A stretch of 64,000 bases of DNA, taken from NCBI GenBank assembly GCA_021414225.1, contig JAIOOX010000001.1, positions 6,624 to 70,623 of the forward strand, written 5' to 3'. A model generated the notes under the pieces. That model was not told the origin of the DNA. It saw only the letters and a list, made by a program, of their open reading frames with translations, and ran no database searches. The position numbers and the translations under genes were made by a program. This stretch comes from Candidatus Vogelbacteria bacterium. Lineage in GTDB: Bacteria > Patescibacteriota > Minisyncoccia > Phycocordibacterales > XYD1-FULL-46-19. The first letter of the stretch is position 1; every line of letters starts with the position of its first letter. Below are positions 6,537 to 46,789 of the stretch, piece after piece.

Positions 6537-6544
6537 GATCAGTA

Positions 6545-7639: not shown

Positions 7640-7707
7640 CCGAAAAATTTTAGGGATATCCCATCACAATTTTCAAACTTTAGGTAAAACACTAAATTAA
7701 ATTGACT

Positions 7708-7765
7708 ACTCCGACAAATTAACTTGTCGGAGCGATTTGTAAAAATTTTAATTTTTACAAATCGC
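7708..7765 (-). other. Two adjacent perfect hairpins between the 23S 3' end and tRNA-Gly (processing or termination structures)
   Basis: H1: ctccgacaaattaacttgtcggag. H2: gcgatttgtaaaaattttaatttttacaaatcgc (14-bp stem). Confidence 0.5.
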
Positions 7766-7790
7766 ATGATTTTTAAATTTCCTAATAGGA

Positions 7791-10810
<3,020 letters not shown>

Positions 10811-11109
10811 TTTCCTATTAGGAAATTTAAAAACCATGTTTACAATTTTAGCCCTGTAACAATTTTATTTGTTACAAGTTTTGATTTAATGCTTACCTAT
10901 CCGCCTCCAGTATGGCAAAGACCCCAATTAAATTGGATAGCCATAAAGTGACGGGATTCAGTTATCAATGTTCCGATTCTTGGCTGAAAAAATTAAACCG
11001 CCTGTCAGGCGGATTTTAGGCACCTATGCAAAAAGCAAGAGTCCTTTAACCCGCGTGTTTTTGGTTTAATTTGATAATCATACTGACGCTCGTTAGTATA
11101 TACCCCACA

Positions 11110-30107: not shown

Positions 30108-30560
30108 CTAAATTTGAGACTTTTTTATTAAAGTTAAAGCTTCAGCCTCATCAACAATTTCAACTATTGGTGATTTGTAACCAAAATAATCTTTTATTAT
30201 TTTTTGCTCTGTTAAAGGAATGTCTGACCAAGAATTATGGTCACAAAAATCTATTTCTACTGCCAAAATCTTTTCATCTTTATCTTCTCTCTTTATAAGA
30301 CCAATTGGTTTAATTAATACTTCGTCAGCTGGTTTCAGATCTCTACTAGAAAAAACCAAAACATCTAGTTCTTCCTCGTGCTCACTATCTTCTTCTTTAT
30401 TTACAGTATCTTTTATAAAACCATAGTGAACCGGCATTATTCCCTCATTAACCGGAATCACATCCTTAATAGGCCCCAAATCGATTAAACCACTCTTGTC
30501 ATATTTCATATGACGTCTTCGACCATCTCCTTTTGGTATCTCTATATAAGCTTTATACAT
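30108..30560 (-). CDS. ppa: Inorganic pyrophosphatase (family I) with an acidic insertion
   Basis: Motifs IEIPKGD, HYGFIKDT and DVLVFS match family I. An acidic insert NKEEDSEHEEE sits before the DxD motif. Confidence 0.7.
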   Translation of the reverse strand: MYKAYIEIPKGDGRRRHMKYDKSGLIDLGPIKDVIPVNEGIMPVHYGFIKDTVNKEEDSEHEEELDVLVFSSRDLKPADEVLIKPIGLIKREDKDEKILAVEIDFCDHNSWSDIPLTEQKIIKDYFGYKSPIVEIVDEAEALTLIKKSQI

Positions 30561-30562
30561 AA

Positions 30563-32005
30563 TTAATCCTTGCGTAAAAATAAAGGCTGAGCTGGGGCTT
30601 TATTTTCTTCAATTAATTGTTGAATGATTTTAGCAGTTTCGGGCATAAGTGGATTTAACATTTGACTAATAGTGTATAAATCAGTAACCAACTCTTCAAT
30701 AATTTTAACTCCAACCGCTTGATCAGTTTTTACCAATTTAAATGGTTGAGTGTCTTGGATTTTTTTATCGAGCTTAGTGATTATCTCCCAAACCACACTC
30801 GCCGCTTTATTGGTGTCGTATTCAGATAAAGCAGTCTGAAAATCAACTGAAGGTAGTGCTGGAACCAAAGCCGGACACTTCATTAAATTAGTTTCAGCCA
30901 TTTTCATAATTCGTGACACCAAATTACCCAAACCATTAGCCAGATTGGCATTATAAGTGTCTTTAAATCTTTCCATCGTAAAAGGACTATCATCAAAAGA
31001 AGAAGTTTCCCTGGTCACAAAATAGCGCAAAGCATCCACTCCGTATTCTGCCACTACATCATAAGGATTAACCACATTACCGATTGACTTAGACATCTTA
31101 ATCCCCCCTTCGCCAGTATAGAAACCATTTATTACCACCTGATGAGTATTCGGTAGATTGACCGACATCAACATGGCCTGCCACATAGCCGACTGTTGAC
31201 GCAAATTGTCCTTACCACAATATTGAGTCGGTGTTCCATTGACCCAGAAAGCCTCAAATTGAGCCTGGTTGTCAGGCCAACCTAAGGTGGAGATATAATT
31301 AACCAATGCATCGAACCAAACATACATTACTTGGTCTGAATCATCGGGAACAGCTACACCCCAGGGCATTTTAGATTTCAACCGAGAAATAGAAAAGTCT
31401 TCTAATCCTCTCTCGACAAAAGCTTTAATTTCATTAAATCTAAAATCAGGTAAAACAAACTTAGGATGTTTAGTATAAAAATCTAACAATGGTTGTTGAA
31501 AAGCGGAAAATTTGAAAAAATAGTTTTCTTCATCAATTAACTCAATTGCTCGGCCAGGATGAAGCGGGCACTCCCCTTTATCATCTAGTTCGGAGTCTGT
31601 TTTTTCTAATTCACATCCGACACAATATTTAATTTGGTAAGCTTTTTTATAAATAAAACCATTAGCCTGACAACGGCGCCAAAATTCTTGAGCGGTTTTT
31701 TCATGCTTGGCATCAGTAGTGCGAACAAAATTAATATCTTCTGAAATACCTAACAACTTGACTAAACCTTTGAATTTTTCAGCATATTCATCGACATACT
31801 GCTTTACTTCTTTACCTTCTTTTTGGGCGGCTTGCCATAGTTTGGAACCATGTTCATCAGTACCAGTATTAAAAAAGACTTCATCACCCACTGATTTACG
31901 CCACCGAGCGATCACATCAGCCCTAATCAACTCCATAGCAAAACCAACATGCGGTTCAGCATTAACATAAGGCAAAGTGGTGGTGATATAAAACTGTTTA
32001 GACAT
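30563..32005 (-). CDS. metG: Methionyl-tRNA synthetase (short form)
   Basis: HIGH-class motif (PYVNAEPHVGFA), a zinc-knuckle CxxC...CPLH, and KMSKS (KMSKSIGNVV). Confidence 0.9.
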   Translation of the reverse strand: MSKQFYITTTLPYVNAEPHVGFAMELIRADVIARWRKSVGDEVFFNTGTDEHGSKLWQAAQKEGKEVKQYVDEYAEKFKGLVKLLGISEDINFVRTTDAKHEKTAQEFWRRCQANGFIYKKAYQIKYCVGCELEKTDSELDDKGECPLHPGRAIELIDEENYFFKFSAFQQPLLDFYTKHPKFVLPDFRFNEIKAFVERGLEDFSISRLKSKMPWGVAVPDDSDQVMYVWFDALVNYISTLGWPDNQAQFEAFWVNGTPTQYCGKDNLRQQSAMWQAMLMSVNLPNTHQVVINGFYTGEGGIKMSKSIGNVVNPYDVVAEYGVDALRYFVTRETSSFDDSPFTMERFKDTYNANLANGLGNLVSRIMKMAETNLMKCPALVPALPSVDFQTALSEYDTNKAASVVWEIITKLDKKIQDTQPFKLVKTDQAVGVKIIEELVTDLYTISQMLNPLMPETAKIIQQLIEENKAPAQPLFLRKD

Positions 32006-32019
32006 AAAAACTAAACTGG

Positions 32020-33081
32020 TTATCGAGCTTCATTCATGCGCGCTTTTCTTTTCTCGAAATCGTTGGCTATTTCCATCAAGATGGTAGCCAGTGGTACCGA
32101 CAAAATAATTCCTAGAAAGCCGGCTATTTTTGCTCCCACCAACAGGGCTAAAATAACAATAATTGGCGATAAACCAACCACCTTTTTAACCACTAGCGGG
32201 TAGATCAGATGGTTTTCAAACTGTTGAATGATCACATACAATCCAATCACCATCAAACCAGCGGTGGTATTATCAGTAAAAGCTAATATCACCGCTGGAA
32301 CAGCGGCTAAGATCGGCCCAAAAACTGGAATCAACTCAAAGAAGGCCGCAATTACCGCCAACACAAAGGCATATTTAACTTGCAAAATAGTGAGTCCTAA
32401 AAAGACCAAAACGCCCACAATCAGAGCCAGTACAATTTGCCCTTTCATCCATTGACCAATCTTAATCTGGGACCGGTTCCACAAATCAAGAATATAAGGT
32501 TCATTACGATAAGGTACGACTAGTTTAATAAAGTTTTCAATTCCTTTCTCTTGAACTGATAAGTAGAAAGAAATAACTAAAATCAAAATAAAACTAAAAG
32601 CTCCACCGAAGACCGTACTAGCAGTCGTAAATAAACCACCAGTAAATTGACCCACCGCCTGTTCAACTGGTTCGATTAAATCTTTTAAAACAAAACTTTT
32701 TTCAATCCCCCCTAGAGATAAGACTGGTTCAAAGTTATAACCAACCACGGATGAAGAATCAATTTGTTCTGGAATATTATTAGAAAGATCGGAAACCTCT
32801 AAAAAGAGGGGTGGTATGAAGATATACAAAAAACTAAAAACAGCACAAAAAGAAACCACATAAATAGTCAGCACAGCTAATACTCGTGGAAATTTATAAT
32901 TCATAAACCAACGAGTCGCCGGTTCTACCGCTGAAGCCAGTACCACTGAAGTCAACAAGATCAACACCAAATCAAATAATAAATAACCAAGCAAAATCAA
33001 GAAGGCCACAAAAAATACCCGCCAGACAGTACCAGTCGTAATAGTTACTTGGATTGGAGTATTTTTAGAGTCTTGTTCCAT
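32020..33081 (-). CDS. AI-2E family transporter (PerM/UPF0118 permease)
   Basis: 353 aa, about 8 TM helices, typical AI-2E topology. Confidence 0.7.
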   Translation of the reverse strand: MEQDSKNTPIQVTITTGTVWRVFFVAFLILLGYLLFDLVLILLTSVVLASAVEPATRWFMNYKFPRVLAVLTIYVVSFCAVFSFLYIFIPPLFLEVSDLSNNIPEQIDSSSVVGYNFEPVLSLGGIEKSFVLKDLIEPVEQAVGQFTGGLFTTASTVFGGAFSFILILVISFYLSVQEKGIENFIKLVVPYRNEPYILDLWNRSQIKIGQWMKGQIVLALIVGVLVFLGLTILQVKYAFVLAVIAAFFELIPVFGPILAAVPAVILAFTDNTTAGLMVIGLYVIIQQFENHLIYPLVVKKVVGLSPIIVILALLVGAKIAGFLGIILSVPLATILMEIANDFEKRKARMNEAR

Positions 33082-33123: not shown

Positions 33124-34425
33124 TTAGGAGTTGAGCTTGGTTATTAGGCCGGCTATGGTCACCCGTTCTTGCTCACCGCTATCACGATGACGAATGGTGA
33201 CCGTCTCATCTTCAAGGGTATCAAAATCGATAGTCACACAGTAAGGAGTTCCTATCTCATCCTGACGGCGATAACGTTTACCAATATTGCCATTATCATC
33301 AAAGACTACTCGGCCAAAATTGGCTTTTAGTTCAGCAAAGATCGTTCGAGCCTTAGCAATTAATTCTGGTTTATTTTTAAGAAGTGGGAAAACAGCCACT
33401 AGCACAGGGGCGACACTAGGGGCTAAAGCCAAATAACTTCGAGCCTCTCCATTCATTTCATCTTCTCGATAAGCATCACTCAATACAGCTAGAACTGTTC
33501 GATCTACCCCAAAAGACGGTTCAATGACATGTGGAATAAAACGTTCTTTAGACTCTTCATCGTAGTACGACAAGTCAACAGTGGAGTTTTCCGAATGCTT
33601 TTTGAGATCGTAGTCGGTTCGATAAGCTAAACCATAAAGCTCCTTGCGACCAAAAGGAAAATCAAATTCAAAATCAATTGTTCTTTCAGAATAATGGGCC
33701 CGGTCTTCCGCTGCCACCTCCAACTCATGAACATGTCCAGCCTCCAAGCCAATCTCCGCATTAAAAGCCAAGACTTCCAATCTTAACTCTTCAAAAGCTT
33801 TTTGCCAGTCGATCGGCTTAACAAAATATTCAATTTCCATTTGCTCAAACTCTCGAGTTCTAAACACAAAATCCCGAGGCGCTATTTCGTTACGAAAAGC
33901 CTTTCCAATCTGAGCCAAACCAAACGGCAATTTGGGATGAAAAGAGTCCAGCACATTTTTGAAGTTCACAAACATCCCCTGAGCTGTTTCTGGTCGTAAA
34001 TAAGACACTGATGTTTCGTCTTGGACTGCCCCCACATTAGTTTTAAACATCATATTAAAAGCTTTCTCAGCTCCTAAAGCTCCCCCGCAGTCTGGACATT
34101 TTTCTTTGTCAGCTAAGTGATCAGCTCTAAAACGTTTTTGACACTTAACACATTCAACCAAGGGGTCAGCAAATCCATCCACGTGACCTGAAGCTTGCCA
34201 CACATTTTGATTCATCAAAATAGCCGCATCAAAACCATACATATCCTCTCGATCGTCTACAAACCGCTTCCACCACAACCGTTTAATATTATTTTTAAGC
34301 GCTACCCCTAAAGGGCCGTAATCCCAAGTCCCAGCCAGGCCACCATAAATTTCCGAGCCCTGGTAAATAAAACCGCGCCTCTTAGCTAAACTAACTATCT
34401 TTTCCATCGTTTTCTCTGTATCCAT
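33124..34425 (-). CDS. glyQS: Glycyl-tRNA synthetase (class II, alpha2 type)
   Basis: Class II motifs, N-terminal WDYGPLGV, and a C-terminal anticodon-binding domain. Confidence 0.85.
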   Translation of the reverse strand: MDTEKTMEKIVSLAKRRGFIYQGSEIYGGLAGTWDYGPLGVALKNNIKRLWWKRFVDDREDMYGFDAAILMNQNVWQASGHVDGFADPLVECVKCQKRFRADHLADKEKCPDCGGALGAEKAFNMMFKTNVGAVQDETSVSYLRPETAQGMFVNFKNVLDSFHPKLPFGLAQIGKAFRNEIAPRDFVFRTREFEQMEIEYFVKPIDWQKAFEELRLEVLAFNAEIGLEAGHVHELEVAAEDRAHYSERTIDFEFDFPFGRKELYGLAYRTDYDLKKHSENSTVDLSYYDEESKERFIPHVIEPSFGVDRTVLAVLSDAYREDEMNGEARSYLALAPSVAPVLVAVFPLLKNKPELIAKARTIFAELKANFGRVVFDDNGNIGKRYRRQDEIGTPYCVTIDFDTLEDETVTIRHRDSGEQERVTIAGLITKLNS

Positions 34426-34430
34426 GACTC

Positions 34431-36353
34431 TTACTCTACCACCAAACCGTCCTTAACTTCAAACCCTGGCTCTGATAACAAACTAGTGTTTAAAGTATTT
34501 TTAGTATCTTGTAAAGTATTATTAGTAAAAAGATCAACCCCAGATAATAGGATATTTTTGACTATAACCGCCGGCCGCTGACGATCAGTAAGACTAGGAG
34601 TAAGCCCTACTTTGAAGATCACTTCCCTAGGAGCCATTTTAACCCCTGTTCCTGCTACTACCCTACCTAGATCCCACCGCACCTCACTAGTGACCGGGTT
34701 ATAAGTTACTTTTTCCGACTTGGGAGTTGTTTCTCCGATAAATCTCACCCCTTGAGGCAAGACCACCTTAACATAGGAATCACTAACATCATTTGAGGTG
34801 TTCAAAACAGATATATCAATAGAATAAGTGGTCTCTTGATCCACCTTTGGCGGGATTGGACCAGTATTGGTCAGAGGCCCGGTCTGGTGAAGCACTTTGG
34901 CTGATAAGCGCAAAATAGAATTCAATTTAATCTTTCGACTAATTTTGGTTTCAATATTTTCAGTTGGAAAGCCCTCAGAAATTCTCGTCCCTCGAATCAC
35001 CGCATTAAGTTTAATAGTTGGATTAACAATACCAGCCATCGCTTGATCAAACAAAGAGTAAGAGTTGAACGTAAAAGAAGTTTTACCAGACTCAAGCGAA
35101 GTTATATCAGCCAACTTAGGTTCAGCCACTTGTGTCCAACTAATCGTTCCATCACTCACTCGATAAAAACCCGTGCCTGGAGAAACACTAGATTTATTAA
35201 AAGGCTCTCCCGACAAACTCACTTCTAGCTGATTATTGACCACCTTACTAGCCAAACTATTAATCCAGTTTAAATCAACCCGAATAGTGCCCCCACTGGT
35301 CACCACCGGTTCAATAGAAGCACTACCATTAATACTTGTATCCAGAGCAATAAACGGTTGCTTTAGGGTTATAGTCTTAAACACTTCAGTAAATTTTGTT
35401 TCAATCGCTCCTTCATCAATAATATCCTGAACTCCAAGTAAAGCCTGAAAAATCTTTACCTCTTGATTAACTCCTGTTAGTCGGCCCTTAATAGTAAAAT
35501 TCTGCTCACTCCCGGATTTTATCTCACCCAAAACCCAAAAGTTGTTGTCTTTGGTTGGCTCTAAGGTCGAACTGATAAATTCAAATCCTCGGGGATAGCT
35601 GATCTGCAAAGCAATCCCCCGCAACACTGATTGAGCGTTAGAAGTAATTTTAACATCTAAGGAAACTTCATGGTCAACTATCGATTCTGGAACAGCTGTA
35701 ATCGCAATACTAACCGGCGGTGAGCTAATAATTAAATTATATTTGGAATCTTTTTGATAGACCGCATTCGATCCGTAAACTCGATAAGCAATCGAACCAG
35801 TCACTTCTCTGGCTTCGTTTTCATTACCAAATAAAGCCGCCGAGACTGACTTGTTGATAGTTTCACCGGGAGCAATACTACCAACTGGTAATTCTACTTT
35901 ACGTAATGGTACAGTAGCATCACCAGGTTGTTTAGTATCGTTAGGATACTCAACCGTTAAGACCACTTGATCTAGGGCTAATTTATTACGATTAGTTATG
36001 ATAATTTGAAAATTTGTTTCGTCGCCAGCCTTGGTAGTAGCGGGACCACTAATAGAAAAATCAATATTACGATTGGAGATTAAATTGGCTCCCTGAAAAA
36101 ACCAAAATCCAGCGACCGCCAGAGTTAAAGCAAAAAAAATAGCCGAGATTAAAGCTAATTTATAGAGAAAGCCTTTTGTAAAACTATCATTATTTGAAGT
36201 GATGGCCTGATTGGAATCAGTCCAAACTGGGACCACTTCTTGGTATTTAGGAGATAATTTTGATCGCCTTACTCCCCCAACAGAAACATCTCGATCGTAT
36301 AATCTTTTCTTTAATTCCTCGATCCGATTAAATTCTTCATTATTAGCGTTCAT
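34431..36353 (-). CDS. Large hypothetical membrane-anchored extracytoplasmic protein
   Basis: 640 aa. One TM helix after about 70 cytoplasmic residues, then a beta-rich repetitive region. Confidence 0.45.
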   Translation of the reverse strand: MNANNEEFNRIEELKKRLYDRDVSVGGVRRSKLSPKYQEVVPVWTDSNQAITSNNDSFTKGFLYKLALISAIFFALTLAVAGFWFFQGANLISNRNIDFSISGPATTKAGDETNFQIIITNRNKLALDQVVLTVEYPNDTKQPGDATVPLRKVELPVGSIAPGETINKSVSAALFGNENEAREVTGSIAYRVYGSNAVYQKDSKYNLIISSPPVSIAITAVPESIVDHEVSLDVKITSNAQSVLRGIALQISYPRGFEFISSTLEPTKDNNFWVLGEIKSGSEQNFTIKGRLTGVNQEVKIFQALLGVQDIIDEGAIETKFTEVFKTITLKQPFIALDTSINGSASIEPVVTSGGTIRVDLNWINSLASKVVNNQLEVSLSGEPFNKSSVSPGTGFYRVSDGTISWTQVAEPKLADITSLESGKTSFTFNSYSLFDQAMAGIVNPTIKLNAVIRGTRISEGFPTENIETKISRKIKLNSILRLSAKVLHQTGPLTNTGPIPPKVDQETTYSIDISVLNTSNDVSDSYVKVVLPQGVRFIGETTPKSEKVTYNPVTSEVRWDLGRVVAGTGVKMAPREVIFKVGLTPSLTDRQRPAVIVKNILLSGVDLFTNNTLQDTKNTLNTSLLSEPGFEVKDGLVVE

Positions 36354-36390
36354 CTAATAATTATACCATGAGTAGAGTTCGTCAAAAATA

Positions 36391-36987
36391 CTACAGGTGA
36401 GTAGCCTTGAGTGAGTTGTTAATAGTCTGAATCATTGGTCGACGGACAGCGTCTAATTTAATTTGAGCTAAGTCTGTCCAAGAGAAATGGTCGATGAAGA
36501 TCCGTAATTCTGGAATATCAGGAATGTAACCTAAGTGGTGCAGAACTCGCAATAAAGTAACGAGCTCAATGTTTTCTAATTCTAAATGACGCCCTTGATC
36601 AACAACCAAACTAATCTGTTTGAACGAGCCTAAAATATCGTCAAACAGAACAGGGTGACTATCCTCACCCTTAACCAACCTTTTGACCACGTTGATAATT
36701 TGTCCCACAACCAGTCGAGCGGATTTATGTTTAACAAAAACAGTCGTAAGACCATAATTTTCTACCCCCACCAACCGCCACACTTCCCGACCTCTCACTA
36801 CACTCAGTCTAATATAACTATACAAAGATAGATGTGGTCTTAATTTAGATTCTGGACGACGATAAGCTTTAACGTGAACAAAAATTAAACCTAAATCTCT
36901 CGTAAAAACACCCACTCGAGCATCCCACTCACTGACACTCGTTTTCGAGATCACAACACCATCCGTGTGATATATGTGATGAGCCAT
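36391..36987 (-). CDS. recO: DNA repair protein RecO
   Basis: N-terminal OB-fold-like region and a RecO-like helical region (ELVTLLRVLHHLGYIPDI, compare RecO ELALLGHLGY). Confidence 0.6.
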   Translation of the reverse strand: MAHHIYHTDGVVISKTSVSEWDARVGVFTRDLGLIFVHVKAYRRPESKLRPHLSLYSYIRLSVVRGREVWRLVGVENYGLTTVFVKHKSARLVVGQIINVVKRLVKGEDSHPVLFDDILGSFKQISLVVDQGRHLELENIELVTLLRVLHHLGYIPDIPELRIFIDHFSWTDLAQIKLDAVRRPMIQTINNSLKATHL

Positions 36988-36990
36988 AAT

Positions 36991-39900
36991 TTAACGTAAA
37001 GCCAAAGAGAAAGATCGACCATCAATCAATAAACTATCAACCCCTGTTATCAGTTCAAACACGATCGATCGAGAGTTGGTTACTCGCAAAATTTCGGTTT
37101 GGTACTTTTCTACTAAAATCTGACTGTCTGGATCAGTACTAATTACCACACTAACAATATCAGTTGGTAATAAACCATTACTTTTACGCAATTCTTGAAT
37201 ATGTCGAATCAAATCTCTAACCAAACCTTCTTCTTTTAACTCAGAGGTAATATTTGTATCCAACTGGACAGGTTCGGACAGGGTCTCATCAACCGAAACA
37301 TTTTTTACATTAACCTCTTCAGCGATCATGACTAAGTAGGCCGGACTTAATGTCTTTTTAATCATCAATTGAGCTAGTGGTTGGCGAACTTTAATTCCCG
37401 CTTCAGCTCTCAAGCGCAATCCCTGCTCAACAATAATTCTAGCTTCGGCCATATCAGCAATCACTACTTCATCAAAAGAAGTGGCCACAGGCCAGTCAGT
37501 TAGGTGGACACTAATTTGATCTTCGGGATTTTTTAATTTTTGGAAAATATCTTCAGCTATAAACGGTGTAAGCGGGGCCATTATTTTAGCTAAGACAAGT
37601 AAGACGTGACTAGTGGTTATTTTGACCAAAGTCCGATCTTTTATATCTTCACTTTTAAACCGATCTCGACTACGACGAATATACCAATTGGACAAGTCAT
37701 CAATAAAGTCATCAATTGGTCTAACCGCTCGGTCCAATTCATAGTTATCCAGCGCTTTACCCACCTCTAAAGTGACCTGGTTTAGTCGGCTGGTAATCCA
37801 AAGATCTAAAATGTTGTCAGATTTTTCAGAACCAATCTTCAGATCTTTATCTGCATACATTTCATAGAAAGAAATTACGTTTTGCAGTCGAGCAATGACT
37901 CGCCGACTAGTCTCACTCAGAGTTCGCTCTGAAAAAGCAAACTCCTCCGCTCTAACTGATGGACAACCCAATAAATAAAAGCGTAAAGCATCAGCCCCAT
38001 ATTTATCAATTGTCGGATGAAGGTCTGGATAATTTTTCAATTTCTTACTCATCTTTTGACCGTCTTCCGCCAAAATCAAACCATTCACAATCACATTTTT
38101 AAATACCGGTTTATTAAACAAAGCCGTCGACAAAACAGACAGCGAATAAAACCAGCCTCGAGTTTGGTCTAAACCTTCAGCAATAAAATCAGCTGGGAAA
38201 TTTTGATTAGTCTCAGGATCAAACTGGTTTTTATCTCCAAACGGATAATGCGCTTGGGCGTAAGGCATCGATCCAGACTCAAACCAGCAGTCAAACACAT
38301 CAGATACTCGAATAAGATTTCCACCACATGAACAGGTCCACTTAAATTCATCAATGTATGGGCGATGAAGATCTAACTCATAATTTTTATTATGAGGATA
38401 TGACCTAACCACCGCCTCTCTAGCTTCACCAGTTTTGAAATACAAGTCACTCCATTTTTCTATTTTTAATAAGTCGTCAATTGTTTTGAAATTCAAATAC
38501 TGTTCCGCCAAGAACAGTGGTAAACCATGAGAAACAACCAGGATTGTTTCATTTTCATGACTATTATTAATATCCATGATAGCACCCAACATTCGAGCTG
38601 ATATTTCATGAATAGTTTCCCCTCCAGGTAAAGCCTTAAAGAAACGTTCATTTCTATTTTTAAACTGGGCATTAAATTCCGCCCAAGGTTTACCATTAAA
38701 GCCCCCGGTTTTAAGTTCTCTTATTTTCTCTTCAGTAACAATATCCTCGATTGGAAAACCGATCGTCTCCGCCACCAATTTGGCTGTCTCTTGAGTCCGC
38801 ACAAATGGTGAGGCAAAGATTTTAGTTATACCTATATCTTTCAAACCACTCGCTGTTTTTGATACCTGACTCCTACCAGTCTCACTTAATTTATTAACTT
38901 CAGTTGGATCATCACTAATAACATCTCGAACATTACCACCAGCTTCACCATGGCGCATCAAAATAAATTTATTTCCACGAGTTGGAAGTTTGCTCACCAA
39001 ATCCTCCACCGAACCAAGGACTTCGCTTTTTTCACAAGAATCACATTTCCAGACCGGCAGTGGTGCTCCCCAAAAACGGGATCGAGAAATAGCCCAATCG
39101 CGAGCCCCTTCTAACCATTTACCGAACCTCCCATCTTTAATATGATCGGGAATCCAGTTGATCTGCTGATTATTAGCAATTAGCTTATCTTTAAAATCAG
39201 TTACTTTTACAAACCACGACGAGGAGGCGTAGTTGAGAAGTGGTGTATCACAGCGCCAACAGTGAGGATAGGAGTGGACGATTTTTTCTTTGGCAAATAA
39301 CACCTCTTTGGCGGCTAGTAGTTTAATCACTTCAATATCAGTCGCCTGGTGGTCGTCTTTTGGTTTAGCTTGTTTACCAGCCAGATCAGTCACTTCTAGT
39401 TTGAATTCCCCGTTGGTGCCCACATGCTGAATAAAAGGCAGATTGTATTGCTGACCCAACTTCATATCATCTTCACCAAAAGCCGGTGCAATATGGACAA
39501 TCCCTGTCCCATCTTCAGTTGTCACAAAATCAGCTCCATAAACTTGCCAACCGTTATCACGATTGACTAATTTTTCATCTTTGGAGTAATGATCAAATAC
39601 TGGTTTATATTTTTTACCAACCAATTTTTCCCCATTAAATTGTTCAACGATTTCATAATCACTCTTCAGGTTTTTTTCAACTAAGTTTTTGGCGAGAATA
39701 TAAAATTTACCATCCTTAACCACTTTCACATATTCAACTTCTTTGTTAACCGCCAAAGCCACGTTACCAGACAAGGTCCAAGGTGTCGTTGTCCAAGCCA
39801 ATAAATAGGTCCCTGGTTCATCAACTAGTTCAAATTTTACTGTCACTGAGATATCAGTAATGTCTTTATAGCCCTGATTAACTTCAAAGTTAGATAAAGT

Positions 39901-40464
39901 AGTCTCACAACGCGGACACAATTGCATTGACTTAAACCCTTGGTAAATCAAATTTTTGTCATGGAGAATTTTAAAAATCCACCAAATTGATTCGGTGTAA
40001 GTAGGATTCATAGTTTTATAATCATTCTCCATGTCCACCCAGCGACCCATGCGGTAAATAACCTCTTTCCAATCAGAAGCATAACGAAGCACACTCGCTC
40101 GAGCGGCTTCGTTAAAAACATCGATTCCTAAAGTCTCAATGTCTTTTTTAACTTTTAACCCCAACTCTTTCTCAACCACATTCTCAACCGGTAAGCCATG
40201 ACAGTCCCAACCCCAGCGTCTAAAGACCCGCTTCCCTTTCATGGTTTGATAGCGAGGAATAGCATCTTTAATCGAGGTTGGCAATAAGTGACCAAAGTGG
40301 GGCAAGCCATTGGCAAATGGCGGACCATCATAAAAAACAAAATCCCCCGCTTTACCCGGCCGACTTTCGGTCTGTTCAAAAATTTTATTGGTACGCCAAA
40401 ACTCCAGAATTTCTTCTTCACGTTTGGCGACATTACTTTTTGTTTCTTTTTCTGGTTCAGCCAT
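36991..40464 (-). CDS. ileS: Isoleucyl-tRNA synthetase, type 2 (eukaryote-like), with an inserted histidine-phosphatase domain
   Basis: HIGH motif PPFANGLPHFGH, editing-domain signature WTTTPWTL, a zinc-knuckle CWRCDTP, and KMSKKLKNYPD (type-2 KMSKS). 1157 aa, with an insert of about 200 aa at residues 495-695. Confidence 0.9.
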   Translation of the reverse strand: MAEPEKETKSNVAKREEEILEFWRTNKIFEQTESRPGKAGDFVFYDGPPFANGLPHFGHLLPTSIKDAIPRYQTMKGKRVFRRWGWDCHGLPVENVVEKELGLKVKKDIETLGIDVFNEAARASVLRYASDWKEVIYRMGRWVDMENDYKTMNPTYTESIWWIFKILHDKNLIYQGFKSMQLCPRCETTLSNFEVNQGYKDITDISVTVKFELVDEPGTYLLAWTTTPWTLSGNVALAVNKEVEYVKVVKDGKFYILAKNLVEKNLKSDYEIVEQFNGEKLVGKKYKPVFDHYSKDEKLVNRDNGWQVYGADFVTTEDGTGIVHIAPAFGEDDMKLGQQYNLPFIQHVGTNGEFKLEVTDLAGKQAKPKDDHQATDIEVIKLLAAKEVLFAKEKIVHSYPHCWRCDTPLLNYASSSWFVKVTDFKDKLIANNQQINWIPDHIKDGRFGKWLEGARDWAISRSRFWGAPLPVWKCDSCEKSEVLGSVEDLVSKLPTRGNKFILMRHGEAGGNVRDVISDDPTEVNKLSETGRSQVSKTASGLKDIGITKIFASPFVRTQETAKLVAETIGFPIEDIVTEEKIRELKTGGFNGKPWAEFNAQFKNRNERFFKALPGGETIHEISARMLGAIMDINNSHENETILVVSHGLPLFLAEQYLNFKTIDDLLKIEKWSDLYFKTGEAREAVVRSYPHNKNYELDLHRPYIDEFKWTCSCGGNLIRVSDVFDCWFESGSMPYAQAHYPFGDKNQFDPETNQNFPADFIAEGLDQTRGWFYSLSVLSTALFNKPVFKNVIVNGLILAEDGQKMSKKLKNYPDLHPTIDKYGADALRFYLLGCPSVRAEEFAFSERTLSETSRRVIARLQNVISFYEMYADKDLKIGSEKSDNILDLWITSRLNQVTLEVGKALDNYELDRAVRPIDDFIDDLSNWYIRRSRDRFKSEDIKDRTLVKITTSHVLLVLAKIMAPLTPFIAEDIFQKLKNPEDQISVHLTDWPVATSFDEVVIADMAEARIIVEQGLRLRAEAGIKVRQPLAQLMIKKTLSPAYLVMIAEEVNVKNVSVDETLSEPVQLDTNITSELKEEGLVRDLIRHIQELRKSNGLLPTDIVSVVISTDPDSQILVEKYQTEILRVTNSRSIVFELITGVDSLLIDGRSFSLALR

Positions 40465-40467
40465 AGG

Positions 40468-42186
40468 TTACATCTTATCGGGTGCTACTATTCCGAGCAA
40501 GTACAGACCATTCTTCATCACAATCGAGAAACTTTCAGTCAAAGCTACTTTATAACCCGACTCCAAATCATTAGCGTCAACGATTTTATTTTGAGCGTAA
40601 AAGTTATTGAAGCTAGCAGCCAGTTCTAACAAATAGGTCACAATATAGTGTGGAGAGAATTCTTTGCCGGCTCGTTCCACCACTTCTGGAAAACGATAAA
40701 GTAACTTTTCTAACACATAAATTTCCTCCACTGTTTTCTTGGTTGTTTTTTCAATACCAGCCTTATTGGCTTTGTCTAAAATAGATTTAGCTCTCGTGTA
40801 AGCGTATTGCAAATAAGGACCAGAATCACCTTCAAACGAGATCGATTTGTCAAAATCAAAAATCACGTCTTTTCCAGGTGCCTGACGCAAGATGGAGAAT
40901 TTGATAGCCCCAACCGCTACCGCCTCGACCACCTGGGCTTTGGTCGCCTGATCATAGTCACGATCTTTAATTTTATCAGCTACCATCTTTTTTATATCTT
41001 CAATTATCGAGACAGCTGTAATCACGTCACCGGTCCGTGAAGACATCTTACCAGACGGCAATCGCAACATACCATGAGACAAGTGAACCGTTTTCTCTGC
41101 TAGTTGAGGAAAAACCAACTCCATAGCCTTTAAAACTACTTTGAAGTAGTCATTGACCTCATTGCCGGTTATCACAACCGATAAATCATAAGGATAGTCT
41201 TCATATTTTATATGAGCTAAACCAAGTTCCTTAGCTTCATAAGTTGGCAAACCTTCTGAGTTTATAAAAACCCGAGTATGCAAACCAAAGTCTTCGCCTG
41301 GGAAAATAATCGCCCCATCGCTTTGTTTAAAAATATCCTTCTTGAGGGAATCCATTACTATCTTCTGACCAAAGTCCCCGGTCGCACTCTCAAAAAAGAA
41401 GTGGTCAAACTTAGTACCAAGTATTTTGTAAATCGAATTAAAGTAGTCTAGACTCCAGTTTTTACCGGTATCATAATAGTAATTAGTTGAATTATTATTC
41501 CTTAAATAAATTTCTTTATTCAGCTCAATTATTAATTGCTTCACCTCTGGATTAGATTCATATTCTTTAGCTCCAAAACTATAAGCGCGACCCAAAAAGT
41601 TAGCACGGGTCGTTTCGTCACCCAGTAATTTAACTTTCCAAAAATCAAACTTCTGATGTTGTAAACCATAAACCGCTTTCGCAATATGCAAACCTACATC
41701 ACCTTGATAACAAGCTCGGTGCAACTCTGCTCCACTGTAGCCAATAACCCTAGAAATAGATTCACCAATAATATTAGACATCAAGTGACCCAAATGAAAT
41801 TCTTTAAACGGATTAGGGTCTGTATATTCAACAATTACTTTTTTATTTTTTAAATTATTGTTAGCTCCGTAACTAGCCCCATTTTTACCAATCATCTCCA
41901 GACTATCACCAAAAAAACTAGGAGCTAGGTAGAAATTAATAAAGCCAAAACCAGCAATCTCCACTTTTTCTAATCCCGCTATTGGTTGTTTATTGAAGGC
42001 CGCCACAATCGCCCGAGCCACTTCCAAAGGACTCATCTCCAGCTTTTTACCATAAACCAGGGCAACATTGGTCGAATAGTCACCATGAGATAAGTCGCCT
42101 GGATGTTCTAAGACTACCTGAGGTCTTTTAACCCCAAGCTCTTTAAGTGCCTCCCCAATAATTCGGTTAATATCGTTAGTTACCAT
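40468..42186 (-). CDS. argS: Arginyl-tRNA synthetase
   Basis: N-terminal Arg_tRNA_synt_N-like domain, class I HxGH motif (HLGHLMSN), and the typical C-terminal anticodon-binding DALR-type domain ending in M. Confidence 0.88.
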   Translation of the reverse strand: MVTNDINRIIGEALKELGVKRPQVVLEHPGDLSHGDYSTNVALVYGKKLEMSPLEVARAIVAAFNKQPIAGLEKVEIAGFGFINFYLAPSFFGDSLEMIGKNGASYGANNNLKNKKVIVEYTDPNPFKEFHLGHLMSNIIGESISRVIGYSGAELHRACYQGDVGLHIAKAVYGLQHQKFDFWKVKLLGDETTRANFLGRAYSFGAKEYESNPEVKQLIIELNKEIYLRNNNSTNYYYDTGKNWSLDYFNSIYKILGTKFDHFFFESATGDFGQKIVMDSLKKDIFKQSDGAIIFPGEDFGLHTRVFINSEGLPTYEAKELGLAHIKYEDYPYDLSVVITGNEVNDYFKVVLKAMELVFPQLAEKTVHLSHGMLRLPSGKMSSRTGDVITAVSIIEDIKKMVADKIKDRDYDQATKAQVVEAVAVGAIKFSILRQAPGKDVIFDFDKSISFEGDSGPYLQYAYTRAKSILDKANKAGIEKTTKKTVEEIYVLEKLLYRFPEVVERAGKEFSPHYIVTYLLELAASFNNFYAQNKIVDANDLESGYKVALTESFSIVMKNGLYLLGIVAPDKM

Positions 42187-42653: not shown

Positions 42654-43079
42654 TTAAGCTCTCCCTGTACTACCAAACCGTCCATCTCCCCGACTCGATT
42701 CTGACATTTCCTCAACCTCTTCCAGGGTGGCAATCTCAACCGGCATAACAACCAGTTGAGCAATTTTATCTCCTTTCTCAATCACATAAGGCTCTTGACC
42801 TAAGTTAATTAAATTAACATTGTACTCCCCTCGATAGCCTGCGTCATAAACTCCACCCATGGTATGAATACCGCCATTTTTTGGCAAACTTCCTTTATCT
42901 TTAACTAGGACCGCAAAGCCATTTGGAAACTCCAAAGCAAAACCAAGAAAAAATATTCTTCTTTCTCCAGGCTGTAATTCATATCTTTCAAGGGAAAATA
43001 AATCTAAACCAACATCGCCAGGATGAGCATAAGAAGGCAATTTAGCTTCTGGGTTAAGTTTCTTGATTTTTAAATTCAT
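42654..43079 (-). CDS. dut: dUTP diphosphatase
   Basis: dUTPase motifs (AHPGDVGLDLF, GERRIFFLGFA, SSRGDGRFGSTG). Confidence 0.9.
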   Translation of the reverse strand: MNLKIKKLNPEAKLPSYAHPGDVGLDLFSLERYELQPGERRIFFLGFALEFPNGFAVLVKDKGSLPKNGGIHTMGGVYDAGYRGEYNVNLINLGQEPYVIEKGDKIAQLVVMPVEIATLEEVEEMSESSRGDGRFGSTGRA

Positions 43080-43093
43080 ATTTATATCTAAAT

Positions 43094-43774
43094 TTAACTA
43101 AGTAATTTTTTAATCACAATTGAAATCTGTTCATGAATATCTGGTATAGGTTTAGGCCTATCCCCATCAGCGCAATCAATTACAGTCCAACCATATTGTT
43201 TGGCGACCTCTAAATAAGCTTGTGAGGCTTTTTCTAAGTGCTGGAGATCGGCTTCATGAATATCTCTTTTTTTACCTTGAGTGTACTCTCTAGCCGACTT
43301 CTGATCGACTAATTTTTGACCTACAGCTGGTGGCATAAACAAAATAATCACCGCATCTGGTTTTGGAATATTAAGCATTCCAAACTCTAAATCTAATAAC
43401 CAGGTCAGGAATTTTTGACGCTCAACCGGATCGGCAATTTTACCAGCCTGATGCCCAATATTAGAGGAGACATAACGATTAGCGATCACCACCCACCCTT
43501 CAGCCAACCACTGTCTGATCTCGGTCGCTTTATCAAAGCGATCTAAAGCATAAAACAATGAGGCCTTATAAGGTCCAACTTCATCCGCTGATCCATATTC
43601 ACCGCGTAAATATTTTTCAACAAACCAAGCACTGCCATTACCATATTGAGGAAAATCAACCATTTTCACTTTCCGCCCCTCAGTTGCCAGACGTTCGATG
43701 ATTAAAGCTGTCTGGGTCCCCTTACCTGAGCCATCCGTACCATCAATGACAATAAAAATACCTTGCTTAATCAT
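43094..43774 (-). CDS. tmk: Thymidylate kinase
   Basis: P-loop IVIDGTDGSGKGTQ and the DRY-like lid. 226 aa. Confidence 0.88.
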   Translation of the reverse strand: MIKQGIFIVIDGTDGSGKGTQTALIIERLATEGRKVKMVDFPQYGNGSAWFVEKYLRGEYGSADEVGPYKASLFYALDRFDKATEIRQWLAEGWVVIANRYVSSNIGHQAGKIADPVERQKFLTWLLDLEFGMLNIPKPDAVIILFMPPAVGQKLVDQKSAREYTQGKKRDIHEADLQHLEKASQAYLEVAKQYGWTVIDCADGDRPKPIPDIHEQISIVIKKLLS

Positions 43775-43776
43775 GC

Positions 43777-44958
43777 CTAATTAATCAGTTTTTTAATTAC
43801 CCGGTCTATTCGATCAGCTATTTTGACCATATCTGATTCTTTTTTACCTCTAGTAGTTTCAGCTGCCGTACCTAGACGAATACCTGAAGGATCTACTGGC
43901 GAGCGACTATCAAATGGAATGGTATTTTTATTAACAATAATCCCCACCTTCTCTAGAGCTTCACTCGCCGCTTTTCCGCCCACCCCTTTACCGTCCAACC
44001 AAGTGTCAACCAAAAGTAGATGACTATCAGTTCCACCAGAAATTAATCGCCAGCCCTTTTTCTTAAGAGCTTCACCTAGAGCTTTAGCATTTTTCACTAC
44101 TTGTTTAGCATATTTTTTATAGGCCTCACTTTGAGCTTCAAGCAAAGTAACAGCCACAGCTGCTATCTGATTCAGGTGTGGTCCACCTTGTAAGCCTGGA
44201 AATACCGCTTTATCTATTTTTTTATATAAATCCCGGTCATCAATCAGAGAAAAGATCAGGGCACTCCGTGGACCTCGCAAGGTCTTGTGCGTGGTCGTAG
44301 TGACCACATCAGCATACGGAAAAGGACTTGGATAAACTCCACCAGCTACCAAACCAGCAATATGAGACATATCCACCATCAGCAAAGATTCTCCAGCATC
44401 AGCTATCTCTCTAAATTTTTTCCAATTGATATTTCGTGGATAAGCAGTAAAACCAGCTACGATAATTGTCGGCTTTTCTTTGATTGCTATTTTCTTTAAT
44501 TCTTCATAATCAATAACTTCCGTTTCCTTAGATACACCATACGGCACCTGAACCCAAGCCTTACCTGTCATTGATACCTTATAGCCATGAGTTAAGTGTC
44601 CTCCATGGTCAAGCGACATCCCCATTATTTTACCGCCCAGTGGCACCAAACCAAGGTAGACCGCCAAGTTCGCTGGAGAGCCAGACAAAGCTTGAACGTT
44701 AACATGCCATTTTTTAGCACTTAATTTAAATAACTTAAGAGCTCGATCCTTACAGATATTTTCAATCTGATCCACAATTTCATTGCCTCCATAATAACGC
44801 AACCCAGAATATCCCTCAGCATACTTATTAGTTAACTCCGAACCCAAGGCTTTAAGCACGTCAGCTGAAACATAATTCTCTGACGCAATTAAATTAACTA
44901 CTTTCTTCTGACGTTTTTTTTCTATGTCTATTAATTTAGTGATTTGTTTATCTTTCAT
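43777..44958 (-). CDS. glyA: Serine hydroxymethyltransferase
   Basis: LIASENYVS motif and the PLP-lysine region TTTTHKTLRGPRSA. 393 aa. Confidence 0.9.
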   Translation of the reverse strand: MKDKQITKLIDIEKKRQKKVVNLIASENYVSADVLKALGSELTNKYAEGYSGLRYYGGNEIVDQIENICKDRALKLFKLSAKKWHVNVQALSGSPANLAVYLGLVPLGGKIMGMSLDHGGHLTHGYKVSMTGKAWVQVPYGVSKETEVIDYEELKKIAIKEKPTIIVAGFTAYPRNINWKKFREIADAGESLLMVDMSHIAGLVAGGVYPSPFPYADVVTTTTHKTLRGPRSALIFSLIDDRDLYKKIDKAVFPGLQGGPHLNQIAAVAVTLLEAQSEAYKKYAKQVVKNAKALGEALKKKGWRLISGGTDSHLLLVDTWLDGKGVGGKAASEALEKVGIIVNKNTIPFDSRSPVDPSGIRLGTAAETTRGKKESDMVKIADRIDRVIKKLIN

Positions 44959-44960
44959 AA

Positions 44961-46250
44961 TTATTTTTCTTTAATATCACTTAAACCTCGACGAACATCC
45001 CAACTATCCAATTCTAAATCTGAATACAAAACTAGATCAGGAAACAGGGTTTTCAATCCATAATGCATTTGGTGAGCAATTTTTCTTAGAGTTGGGTGAA
45101 CCAGTTTACCTGATCGCAACTCTACTGTATAAACGGTCGCCGGCAAGCCATAAGTAACTTTACATGGCGTATTGAAACCCATCGCCACGTAATATTGTTT
45201 TATCTCATCAGTAGCCGACAAAGACTGAATCGCTTCTGTCTGATTTTTAATTAAAGTCAAAGCCTCTAACATTAAGTCATCCGGTAACTGATTTAAGTAC
45301 CAATCATTAAAACCACACTGCGGGGTCAATAGCGGCATCCGGCAAACACCATTACGATGGCGTTGAATGTCTCTGAACGAACCAAAGTCCATCAAAAATT
45401 CAAAAGTAATAGTTCCTAATTCCGTCAAAAAATGAGGCAGGTTAGTTTTGATTGGCCGTTTAGCCAATATCTCTTTGTATTGACTCAAGCTGGAAGCATC
45501 AATAGTGGTTGAATAAATAAAATTAGGATTACAAACTTTAGGATTATAAAAAGTAAAATTTTCAACTAAATACTGACGATAATTTTCCTGCCCTTCATAA
45601 TTCTTGTGCGAGAAACTGTTTGGGTATTTTTCAGATAAAGCCTGGTGAATACTCTCGGCCACCGCCCTAACTTCCGGTAATGGATTATAACGCATTAAAG
45701 CTAGTTTATCGGCCGCCTGACGTAAGTTGGTATGCCATGACAATTGAGTTGTTGATCCTGCTGGTAAAAACGAACGCAAGATATCAAAAGAACGAGCAGT
45801 AATAGCTTTCAAATACACATTTTCATCTTCTTCTGGCCGACGCGGATAGCGTTTTTGTAAGTAAGCAATCAACGGCTCTTTACTCTTACTATAAAAATCT
45901 ATCCAATTCTGAATAATTTTTTTAGATTCTGGTGTACCTAGAGGATCAACTATTTCTTGTTGAGCAAAATCAATATAGCGAGAACTAGTTTCTTGGCCAG
46001 AGTAAAGAGGCCAGTCTTGAACAGCTTTTGCCACCAACATACTTACTCCTTCAATAAAAACCGTCGTACTACCGCAATCCGCAATACTGGCATGACCATA
46101 GCCAACATAAAATTTCTCCATAAACTTACCTGAACCCGTTTTCTTAACCTTCTCCGCATGTTCCACCACACTCTCAGCACTCCGAGAGTATAACGCTTGC
46201 ATCATCGCAATATCTTCTGGATTAAATTCATCGTAGACAAAAGTTTTCAT
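44961..46250 (-). CDS. Divergent ThyX-like flavin-dependent thymidylate synthase family protein (double length)
   Basis: Alignable to the ThyX core (GHASIADCG...QETSSRY against ThyX GHE..FEH...RHRxxxxxxSxRY). The first RHR is replaced by DWP and an RHR lies later (IQRHRNG). A second ThyX-like helix is present (LRSGKLVHPTLRKIAHQM). The gene sits inside the dCMP deaminase-glyA-tmk-dut operon. Confidence 0.5.
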   Translation of the reverse strand: MKTFVYDEFNPEDIAMMQALYSRSAESVVEHAEKVKKTGSGKFMEKFYVGYGHASIADCGSTTVFIEGVSMLVAKAVQDWPLYSGQETSSRYIDFAQQEIVDPLGTPESKKIIQNWIDFYSKSKEPLIAYLQKRYPRRPEEDENVYLKAITARSFDILRSFLPAGSTTQLSWHTNLRQAADKLALMRYNPLPEVRAVAESIHQALSEKYPNSFSHKNYEGQENYRQYLVENFTFYNPKVCNPNFIYSTTIDASSLSQYKEILAKRPIKTNLPHFLTELGTITFEFLMDFGSFRDIQRHRNGVCRMPLLTPQCGFNDWYLNQLPDDLMLEALTLIKNQTEAIQSLSATDEIKQYYVAMGFNTPCKVTYGLPATVYTVELRSGKLVHPTLRKIAHQMHYGLKTLFPDLVLYSDLELDSWDVRRGLSDIKEK

Positions 46251-46252
46251 AA

Positions 46253-46789
46253 TTATTTCATATTATCGTAAACTTCTAATTCATTATTCAAAAGCTCATA
46301 CTCCACACCAGCGTCTTTAAAAATTTCTTTACTCCGACCGCCACGATGATAATCCTTCAAAGCTACTACTCGCTTAATTCCAGCATTGATCACGATCTTG
46401 GCACAAATATAACAAGGGGTCATGTGACAATAAACCGTCGCCCCATCCAAACTAACTCCGACTCGAGCCGCTTGAGCGATCGCGTTTTGTTCGGCGTGAG
46501 TTGTCCGCACACAATGCAATGACTGGGTACCATCATCGTTTAAAACCGTACTCAGCTCATGACCAACTTCATCACAATGAGCCACCCCAGCTGGAGCACC
46601 CACATAACCAGTCGTTAAAATTCGTTTGTCTCTTACAATTACACAGCCAGACCGACCTCGATCACAAGTCGCTCGACTGCCAACCAACTCAGCAATACTC
46701 ATAAAATATTCGTCCCAAGACGGGCGACGATAAGACTCTTTGACCTGTTTATCTTCAGTCATATTGGTCATTATACTCCTCCCACTCAA
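46253..46789 (-). CDS. Deoxycytidylate (dCMP) deaminase
   Basis: Zinc-binding HAEQNA...PCYICAKIV cytidine/dCMP deaminase motifs. Confidence 0.85.
   Translation of the reverse strand: MSGRSIMTNMTEDKQVKESYRRPSWDEYFMSIAELVGSRATCDRGRSGCVIVRDKRILTTGYVGAPAGVAHCDEVGHELSTVLNDDGTQSLHCVRTTHAEQNAIAQAARVGVSLDGATVYCHMTPCYICAKIVINAGIKRVVALKDYHRGGRSKEIFKDAGVEYELLNNELEVYDNMK

Follow-up and report, generated by a model that had tools for sequence, protein, structure and literature searches.

The 64-kb window analysed here, the whole stretch of DNA under study, comes from a Candidatus Vogelbacteria genome and contains, on its minus strand, a gene for isoleucyl-tRNA synthetase (IleRS) that is interrupted, in frame, by a complete histidine phosphatase. 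The phosphatase module, which we call hp, replaces a short loop in the catalytic body of the synthetase. The gene, its two synthetase parts, the module and their signature residues are as follows, in the order of the protein; residue numbers are those of IleRS.

36991..40464, minus strand: ileS open reading frame, 1157 amino acids plus stop, uninterrupted; type-2 IleRS with nested phosphatase
38998..40464, minus strand: IleRS residues 1-489; first Rossmann half, connective peptide 1 (CP1) editing domain and CP2, up to the CxxC of the zinc knuckle
40288-40299, minus strand: HFGH, residues 56-59; HIGH signature of class I
39034..39045, minus strand: C474-x-x-C477; first half of the zinc knuckle flanking the insert, Cys in 118 of 120 homologues
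38395..38997, minus strand: hp module with two short linkers, residues ~490-690, delimited by alignment to the IleRS structure 8c8u and to insert-less IleRS
38512..38964, minus strand: Pfam His_Phos_1 (PF00300), residues 501-651; E=6.8e-30, 104.6 bits against a gathering cut-off of 21.7
38947..38955, minus strand: R504-H505-G506 (RHG), with the predicted nucleophilic His; aligned to R9-H10 of PhoE 1h2e, invariant in 120 of 120 homologues
38797..38799, minus strand: R556, second phosphate-binding Arg by alignment to PhoE; 120 of 120
38716..38718, minus strand: E583, predicted general acid/base by alignment to PhoE; 120 of 120
38527..38529, minus strand: H646, distal catalytic His by alignment to PhoE; 120 of 120
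36994..38394, minus strand: IleRS residues 691-1157; remaining catalytic domain, stem-contact fold, anticodon-binding domain and type-2 C-terminal domain
38326..38334, minus strand: C711-x-C713; second half of the zinc knuckle, Cys in 118 of 120 homologues
38041-38055, minus strand: KMSKK, residues 804-808; KMSKS signature (DCWFESGS also lies in residues 691-1157)

A type-2 isoleucyl-tRNA synthetase and its nested phosphatase

The host protein, a type-2 IleRS, comes from a Paceibacteria-type (Candidatus Vogelbacteria) genome and is probably its housekeeping enzyme. As a whole it scores 894.8 bits against the NCBIfam ileS model (TIGR00392, cut-off 621.4), and Pfam recognizes tRNA-synt_1, Anticodon_1 and, at residues 1066-1156, DUF5915 (PF19302). 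The solved structures closest by sequence are P. megaterium IleRS2 (8c8u, E=5.6e-225) and eukaryote-type IleRS; IleRS2 (8c8u/8c8v) and the yeast enzyme outrank the type-1 structures 8c9e and 1ffy in sequence and in fold. Judged from its sequence, the C-terminal organization (ARD3/DUF5915, without the type-1 zinc-binding domain) is that of type 2, the class to which the original prediction had assigned the enzyme. H56, G58, K804, K807 and the Thr-rich editing motif WTTTPWT (W224-T230) are invariant in 119 aligned sequences, and residues 198-401 match the IleRS editing-domain structure 1wk8 (CP1, E=1.4e-26). The AlphaFold2 (AF2) model of the full-length protein has a mean per-residue confidence (pLDDT) of 91.4 and a predicted template-modelling score (pTM) of 0.84, with blocks of the insert at pLDDT 92-97, and its IleRS body can be superposed on IleRS2 as well as on the IleRS-tRNA complex of yeast. 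The ~80-amino-acid INS subdomain found in ARD2 of P. megaterium IleRS2 is seemingly absent from the window protein (window 36994-37290), because the HMMER alignment jumps from residue 852 to 934 of 8c8u whereas on the query side it advances by just two residues, from 1061 to 1063.

The insertion is sharply defined. Residues 9-489 of the query align with residues 7-474 of 8c8u, and residues 691-1061 with 480-852, leaving about 200 amino acids in place of about five. The insert falls between WGAPLPVW-CxxC and CxC-...DCWFESGS, that is, between the two halves of the zinc knuckle, at what is a short loop in solved IleRS structures, 8c8u included; in Pfam terms, the His_Phos_1 match interrupts the tRNA-synt_1 match and leaves two synthetase parts. 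By position this canonical loop is probably CP3: the connective peptides of IleRS have been listed as CP core, ED/CP1, CP2 and CP3 (Chen et al. 2024, PMC11685878), and the hp site is the last of the loops in that list. The original prediction had placed the insert at 38382-38985 (residues 494-695), which agrees within 13 nt with the boundaries obtained by alignment, and had put it between VWKCDSC and DLHRPYIDEF...CSCGG. All the motifs it quoted are present in that arrangement: VWKCDSC at residues 471-477, FILMRHGEAGGN at 500-511, SPFVRTQETA at 552-561 and LVVSHG at 642-647, and, beyond the insert, DLHRPYIDEF at 698-707 and CSCGG at 711-715.

The family to which hp belongs is certain: by sequence it is a branch-1 histidine phosphatase, complete at ~195 amino acids and of the PhoE/PspA type. 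Searched alone, the insert matches PhoE (1h2e/1ebb, E ~1e-10), the phosphoserine phosphatase PspA, TIGAR and CobC, and the alignment to PhoE pairs R504-H505, N511, R556, E583 and H646 with known catalytic residues. The earlier claim of a whole domain of catalytic type is thus borne out, and the catalytic residues then named are present, with the small correction that the second catalytic Arg is R556. Modelled alone, the insert reaches pLDDT 94.3 and pTM 0.91. Foldseek pairs this model, at TM scores of 0.65-0.74, with PspA (4ij6), PhoE (1h2e), Rv2419c GpgP (4qih), TIGAR, the phosphoserine phosphatase of E. histolytica and the riboflavin-pathway HFP 9mmh; its nearest solved folds are compact small-metabolite phosphomonoesterases of ~200 amino acids. 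Cofactor-dependent phosphoglycerate mutases (dPGMs) rank below these, with higher root-mean-square deviations, and hp falls short of the dPGM cut-offs as well (NF038349, dPGM_arch, 80.5 against 225 bits; NF002901, 59.8 against 261; NF002339, 31.8 against 316). It likewise scores below the cut-offs for the alpha-ribazole phosphatase CobC (TIGR03162, 68.6 against 162.9 bits) and for PspA (NF045917, 59.1 against 350 bits).

Since the histidine-phosphatase superfamily also includes the protein phosphatases SixA, PGAM5 and Sts, hp could be a regulator that dephosphorylates IleRS, its second host valyl-tRNA synthetase (ValRS; see below) or a partner protein, countering, for example, HipA-type kinases. 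A phosphatase resident on its target would explain tethering without a fixed geometry, and there is a weak match, of 35 bits, to the SixA model. That match (TIGR00249, 35.4 bits) misses the cut-off of 74.5 and covers the N-terminal third only; neither SixA nor Sts nor PGAM5 is among the best 50 Foldseek matches of the insert model; and no kinase is found in the conserved gene neighbourhood, either in the window or at three related loci (L002, L009 and L012). We consider a phosphoprotein phosphatase very unlikely indeed.

Conservation among relatives argues for a maintained catalytic function. The sample consisted of the 120 best homologues of the window IleRS (53-81% identity, 1112-1325 amino acids) from NCBI, JGI, ENA and Logan assemblies. 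PF00300 is annotated in precomputed form in all 120, with one module each by local hidden Markov model (HMM) search, and the spacing from CxxC to CxC is 229-240 amino acids throughout. R504, H505, G506, S552, R556, E583 and H646 are invariant in the whole set and N511 is kept in 114, although the modules share a median of only 35% identity with that of the query; for the IleRS bodies the figure is 64%. The core R, H, R, E and H are kept in every complete copy, including tandem, alternate-site and named-genome modules; the exceptions to residue conservation are a truncated fourth copy in one protein (P0122) and a few non-core substitutions. Invariance of the active site at ~35% overall identity indicates selection on activity.

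The same pattern rules out an artefact. Nothing was found in favour of a chimeric assembly, a frameshift or two genes miscalled as one. The frame is uninterrupted, the IleRS motifs are intact, both parts fold confidently in AF2, and the architecture recurs in all 120 homologues, whose assemblies are independent, as well as in 11 species representatives of GTDB; moreover, the module has IleRS sequence before and after it, an arrangement that a simple gene fusion cannot produce. An artefact, which the original prediction had already dismissed in the form of a gene fusion, is effectively refuted.

Several observations on individual members of this group deserve mention. One homologue of 1325 amino acids (P0082) carries a GNAT domain (PF13302/PF00583) at residues ~294-394, within the CP1 region (~235-278 of the insert-deleted reference sequence), and so holds two foreign enzyme domains, GNAT and hp, in one synthetase. 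In a Candidatus Peregrinibacteria genome (JACPMA010000018.1), an in-frame TAG at L017:4547-4549, at the conserved Ser of CPRCETxLSNFEV, splits the module-bearing ileS reading frame; an error of sequencing, a decayed gene (pseudogene) and a stop that is recoded are all possible readings. The window protein is identical to an NCBI entry named 'class I tRNA ligase family protein [Candidatus Vogelbacteria bacterium]', and NCBI labels module-bearing IleRS and ValRS solely as 'class I tRNA ligase family protein' or 'hypothetical protein'; module-less ValRS of related taxa receive the label 'valine--tRNA ligase'. It appears that the nested domain keeps these proteins from being named specifically at NCBI even where, as in the window, the TIGR00392 score exceeds its cut-off.

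Split, nested and repeated forms of the module

In sister lineages the phosphatase also exists as a separate gene at the same locus. When the insert was searched against 1.84 billion cluster representatives, 11,191 matches fell below 1e-3 and 719 below 1e-10. The best 150 of the 11,191 comprise 94 IleRS or IleRS fragments and 56 module-only proteins, the latter mostly of ~190-215 amino acids. The genes next to ileS in the window give the context in which the free form occurs:

40468..42186, minus strand: argS, directly upstream; 3 nt from the argS stop to the ileS start
36391..36987, minus strand: recO, directly downstream of ileS, in the conserved order argS-(hp)-ileS-recO-DUF11
34431-36353, minus strand: DUF11 gene, beyond recO

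Three free hp proteins from different 50% clusters (P0165, P0191 and P0181) are encoded between argS and an insert-less ileS of 931-984 amino acids. At the split loci L002, L009 and L012, recO and a DUF11/CLIPPER-like gene follow, matching the gene order of the window, and the insert-less IleRS have a loop of 5-8 residues exactly where the insert sits. In L002 and L009 a gap of 1 nt separates the stop of hp from the start of ileS (in L009, hp occupies 6001-6570 and ileS 6572-9367, and the loop of the insert-less IleRS reads EKLSSVKV); in a further split locus, from Staskawiczbacteria (L025), the two frames overlap where ileS begins. Free hp and the insert can be aligned over their full lengths, at 33-36% identity, and the insert-less IleRS of L009 is 54% identical to that of the window, as close as insert-bearing homologues are. 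We take the nested form to be a conserved partnership of two proteins in its fused state, and the conserved argS-hp-ileS operon strongly supports a functional link of hp with IleRS in general. Another free hp (P0169, L008:204-5354) was seen downstream of defence-type genes (AbiEii, NERD, MazG-like, SLFN-like helicase, DUF3800); DUF7619/CLIPPER and AI-2E neighbours there recall the gene order of the window, in a locus without argS or ileS.

To gauge how widely the module is spread, GTDB species representatives were scanned with an IleRS alignment and classified by HMM, a sample of at least 80 loci. The type-2 IleRS loci listed divide into 11 nested, one split (the Staskawiczbacteria locus) and 68 without the module. 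Among the matches listed, hp-positive loci belong to Patescibacteria only; the labels of the 11 nested loci are Paceibacteria/Paceibacterota, Minisyncoccia, Yanofskybacteria, Spechtbacterales, Peregrinibacteria, Peribacteria, 'Patescibacteria group' and 'bacterium'. Three Saccharibacteria/Saccharimonadales, some Peribacteria/Peregrinibacteria and every phylum outside the candidate phyla radiation (CPR) are module-less in the same set, in which one module-less locus gave a weak family-level match in its flank only. The nested phosphatase, which the original prediction had called highly unusual, is so among characterized synthetases; in a large part of Patescibacteria it is the norm, and it occurs in ValRS as well.

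Nor is the module confined to one loop. Insertion sites were mapped by BLAST against a reference IleRS from which the insert had been deleted (ref), by Pfam and from the gene calls of a 1.06-Mb contig. One IleRS (P0255) has a single module at a site we call C (ref 748-756) and none at the canonical site; another (P0146), a type found on six contigs from ENA assemblies, the longest of 1.06 Mb, has modules at site C and at a site D (ref 874-884). Two others combine a copy at or near the canonical loop with a second elsewhere, at site C in P0138 (the canonical-loop copy lying at about ref 700-712) and at site D in P0192. Three (P0209, P0221 and, from Ca. Peribacteria, L023) carry two tandem copies at the canonical site.

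A protein with four modules (P0122) turned out to be a ValRS, scoring 381-411 bits with valS models against 199 with ileS. Among the 120 ValRS relatives returned by a search with it, 71 contain hp: 57 one copy, 12 two, one three and one four. The module-bearing ValRS measure 1011-1626 amino acids and, where their source names them, come from Gracilibacteria or Peregrinibacteria. Their main insertion site, which WGHRIPVW and DTLDTWFSSG flank, corresponds by homology to the canonical site of IleRS, and a second lies near the equivalent of IleRS ref ~424.

So many insertion sites, together with tandem amplification, a patchy distribution in which relatives have hp nested, split off or not at all, and sporadic fusions to unrelated enzymes, might suggest a promiscuous or selfish domain lodged in the permissive loops of large essential proteins, or mere ballast or a non-catalytic scaffold. 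Ballast would not be expected to keep its catalytic residues in every complete copy at ~35% identity, and the argS-hp-ileS position is kept across divergent lineages. The edges of the insert have no common word of 7 nt or longer, no repeats and no mobility machinery; GC content of the insert is inside the host range, with GC at third codon positions slightly lower, and the composition of the gene is unremarkable. A selfish or inert domain seems to us extremely improbable.

Proposed function and competing explanations

We think it probable that hp is an active phosphomonoesterase with a small phosphorylated substrate, nested in IleRS and ValRS and kept with them for co-localization or stoichiometry. 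The protein would then be bifunctional, as its conserved residues and predicted fold suggest. The synthetase part would charge and edit tRNA-Ile normally, while the module would hang from its loop on two short linkers as an independent globule. There a phosphomonoester would be hydrolysed by way of a phospho-His505 intermediate, with R504, R556, N511 and H646 binding the phosphate and E583 serving as acid/base; the substrate would most likely be a small phosphorylated metabolite or nucleotide. Since hp is tolerated as a separate subunit, at four loops and in multi-copy arrays, selection appears to act on co-localization or stoichiometry and not on one exact geometry. The original prediction had instead proposed hydrolysis coupled to charging or editing; the free gene, the at least three other loops and the tandem arrays argue against a fixed geometry of that kind.

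Some observations weigh against the co-localization reading. All that is said here of catalysis derives from conserved residues and a predicted fold, and hp lies below the cut-off of every NCBIfam equivalog, so that a substrate cannot be transferred by homology. The canonical loop dominates in both IleRS and ValRS, and geometry could matter after all. Two of the five free-standing hp homologues checked are not adjacent to ileS, although one of these retains remnants of the synteny, and no hp gene stands beside the module-less valS in the two genomes inspected. Finally, a neighbour-joining tree of IleRS bodies scatters split among nested forms; this tree, like that of the modules, has long branches and no support values.

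On the most far-reaching reading, hp would be mechanistically integrated into charging by both branched-chain class-Ia synthetases of CPR bacteria. The module could, for example, take a 2'- or 3'-phosphate or pyrophosphate off A76 of the tRNA, as repair or immunity against toxins that modify tRNA ends, or its target could be a phosphorylated antimetabolite, directed at IleRS and ValRS, which it would destroy. Integration of this sort, which we judge unlikely, would add a quality-control or repair step to translation beside CP1 editing.

A related proposal, in line with the original prediction, is healing of tRNA ends coupled to charging: hp would strip A76 of tRNA-Ile or tRNA-Val, or some other RNA end, of a 2'/3'-phosphate, cyclic phosphate or pyrophosphate and so allow the synthetase to aminoacylate it. 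There are precedents. In E. coli the CCA-adding enzyme, which works on tRNA 3' ends, has a phosphatase in its HD domain, and in RNase HI-CobC (Rv2228c) a histidine phosphatase is joined to an enzyme that acts on nucleic acids; PRK07238, the model for the latter type (RNase HI/acid phosphatase), is the second-best NCBIfam match of hp, at 78.5 bits. The hosts IleRS and ValRS are tRNA enzymes, to which a single Sua5/TsaC and a weak AlkB-like fusion (P0238) can be added, a single strand separates the canonical site from the WF(E/D)SG active-site motif, and one free hp homologue is encoded near RtcB and TGT. The nearest folds, however, are all small-metabolite phosphomonoesterases, which also tells against the 2',3'-cyclic ends offered as an example substrate in the original prediction. 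The modules are near-neutral (median isoelectric point 5.9-6.7), a weak test since the tRNA-binding part of the host is acidic too. Four loops, arrays of up to four copies and a free form are ill-suited to a single tRNA-end path, and a need limited to IleRS and ValRS would be left without explanation. We therefore regard end healing as decidedly doubtful.

Relatives of the module fused to other enzymes bear on a third proposal, in which hp would hydrolyse pyrophosphate (PPi), another phosphoanhydride or a nucleotide by-product (a nucleoside diphosphate or ApnA) and so pull amino acid activation forward. One module relative is fused to ATP sulfurylase (P0170, three cluster members), and another to Sua5/TsaC (P0231, a single cluster member); both partners are adenylate-forming, PPi-releasing enzymes. 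Some eukaryotes have ATP sulfurylase fused to a pyrophosphatase, and mycobacterial MutT1 has a C-terminal histidine-phosphatase domain that cleaves a nucleoside diphosphate. In the locus containing the ATP sulfurylase fusion (L006:6001-8536, JGI 3300021357), a close module relative is joined N-terminally to PUA_2 and ATP sulfurylase; the next gene encodes a sulfotransferase, within a glycosyltransferase cluster, and there is no adenosine 5'-phosphosulfate kinase within 6 kb. This phosphatase might act on 3'-phosphoadenosine 5'-phosphate (PAP) or its phosphosulfate, PAPS, and a role as a PAP 3'-phosphatase is at least as likely there as PPi hydrolysis. In the Sua5 case (L007:977-2140, Logan SRR22388321) a Sua5/YciO/YrdC domain is followed by hp where the SUA5 domain normally sits, a singleton on a 3.7-kb contig. 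The window, for its part, already encodes enzymes for such by-products, a DHH/DHHA1 NrnA-like protein (48551-49567) and a pyrophosphatase:

30108..30560, minus strand: family-I inorganic pyrophosphatase (PF00719, 50.9 bits against a cut-off of 23.5), directly following the gene for methionyl-tRNA synthetase (MetRS)

With these in hand, clearance of by-products by hp strikes us as very unlikely. The narrower idea that hp replaces a pyrophosphatase, which the ATP sulfurylase and Sua5 fusions had prompted, was largely rejected in view of the same two proteins; the genome encodes its own pyrophosphatase, and hp does not stand in for a missing one.

The wider window and known systems

The ileS operon belongs to a translation-rich region on the minus strand (window 30108-33081 and 33124-42186) that encodes the arginyl-tRNA synthetase ArgRS, IleRS, RecO and the DUF11 protein, and in addition a class-II synthetase of the HGTP anticodon type, an AI-2E transporter, MetRS, the pyrophosphatase, TatD, ribosomal protein S6 and single-stranded DNA-binding protein. 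Upstream of argS lies a nucleotide-salvage cluster (43094-46789) for thymidylate kinase, serine hydroxymethyltransferase, a 429-amino-acid ThyX-like protein and dCMP deaminase, next to which is the dUTPase of the same cluster:

42654-43079: dUTPase of the nucleotide-salvage cluster

An rRNA operon at 7392-10820 contains, in this order, 23S, tRNA-Gly(GCC) and 5S genes, the 23S gene measuring 3040 nt against a model of 2925 nt (~115 extra); no 16S gene was found anywhere in the 64-kb window.

The closest analogue of hp in architecture is the CP1 editing domain of IleRS, ValRS and LeuRS, also a hydrolase nested in a loop of the Rossmann domain on two linkers. CP1 is universal, acts on mis-acylated tRNA and has an unrelated fold, whereas hp is lineage-specific, occupies a later connective loop and can be a separate gene or present in several copies. 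In fold, size (~200 amino acids) and catalytic residues hp resembles PhoE of B. stearothermophilus (1h2e/1ebb) and PspA of H. thermophilus (4ij5/4ij6), but these are free-standing metabolic enzymes and only 25-27% identical to it. The RNase HI/CobC-type acid phosphatase of M. tuberculosis (Rv2228c; PRK07238) likewise joins a branch-1 phosphatase to a nucleic-acid enzyme; it is an end-to-end fusion with another partner, however, and the score of hp with PRK07238 compares with a cut-off of 326 bits. MutT1 (NF052459), a Nudix protein with a C-terminal histidine phosphatase, offers a comparable fusion to a nucleotide-handling enzyme, but its phosphatase is terminal and not nested, and the match of hp is weak (25.5 bits against a cut-off of 475). 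A further curated case is ileS_w_GNAT (NF040702), an IleRS with an extra enzyme domain, in that case an N-acetyltransferase; the window protein is not a member, scoring 305 bits against a cut-off of 1999.

Within type-2 IleRS itself, the INS of ARD2, of ~80 amino acids, is non-enzymatic and binds the tRNA D-loop (Modrusan et al. 2026, bioRxiv 10.64898/2026.02.03.703510). Like hp it is an optional, lineage-variable insertion; unlike hp it lies in the C-terminal region and has no enzymatic function. In the survey of IleRS domain evolution reported in the same study (Modrusan et al. 2026, bioRxiv 10.64898/2026.02.03.703510), INS is the sole insertion described, and neither a phosphatase nor Patescibacteria appear. 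Our own search of the literature found no description of a histidine phosphatase in or beside an aminoacyl-tRNA synthetase.

Few enzymes are as highly conserved as the aminoacyl-tRNA synthetases, and in bacterial synthetase cores the editing domains are, to our knowledge, the only nested catalytic domains known. Here a second, unrelated hydrolase with an intact predicted active site is nested in IleRS across many Patescibacteria. Its recurrence as an operon neighbour, at other loops, in arrays and in ValRS points to a real link between a phosphatase and branched-chain aminoacylation, in bacteria that are minimal and host-dependent. The split and nested forms of the same two proteins make a natural pair, and a model for how whole enzymes come to be inserted into other enzymes.

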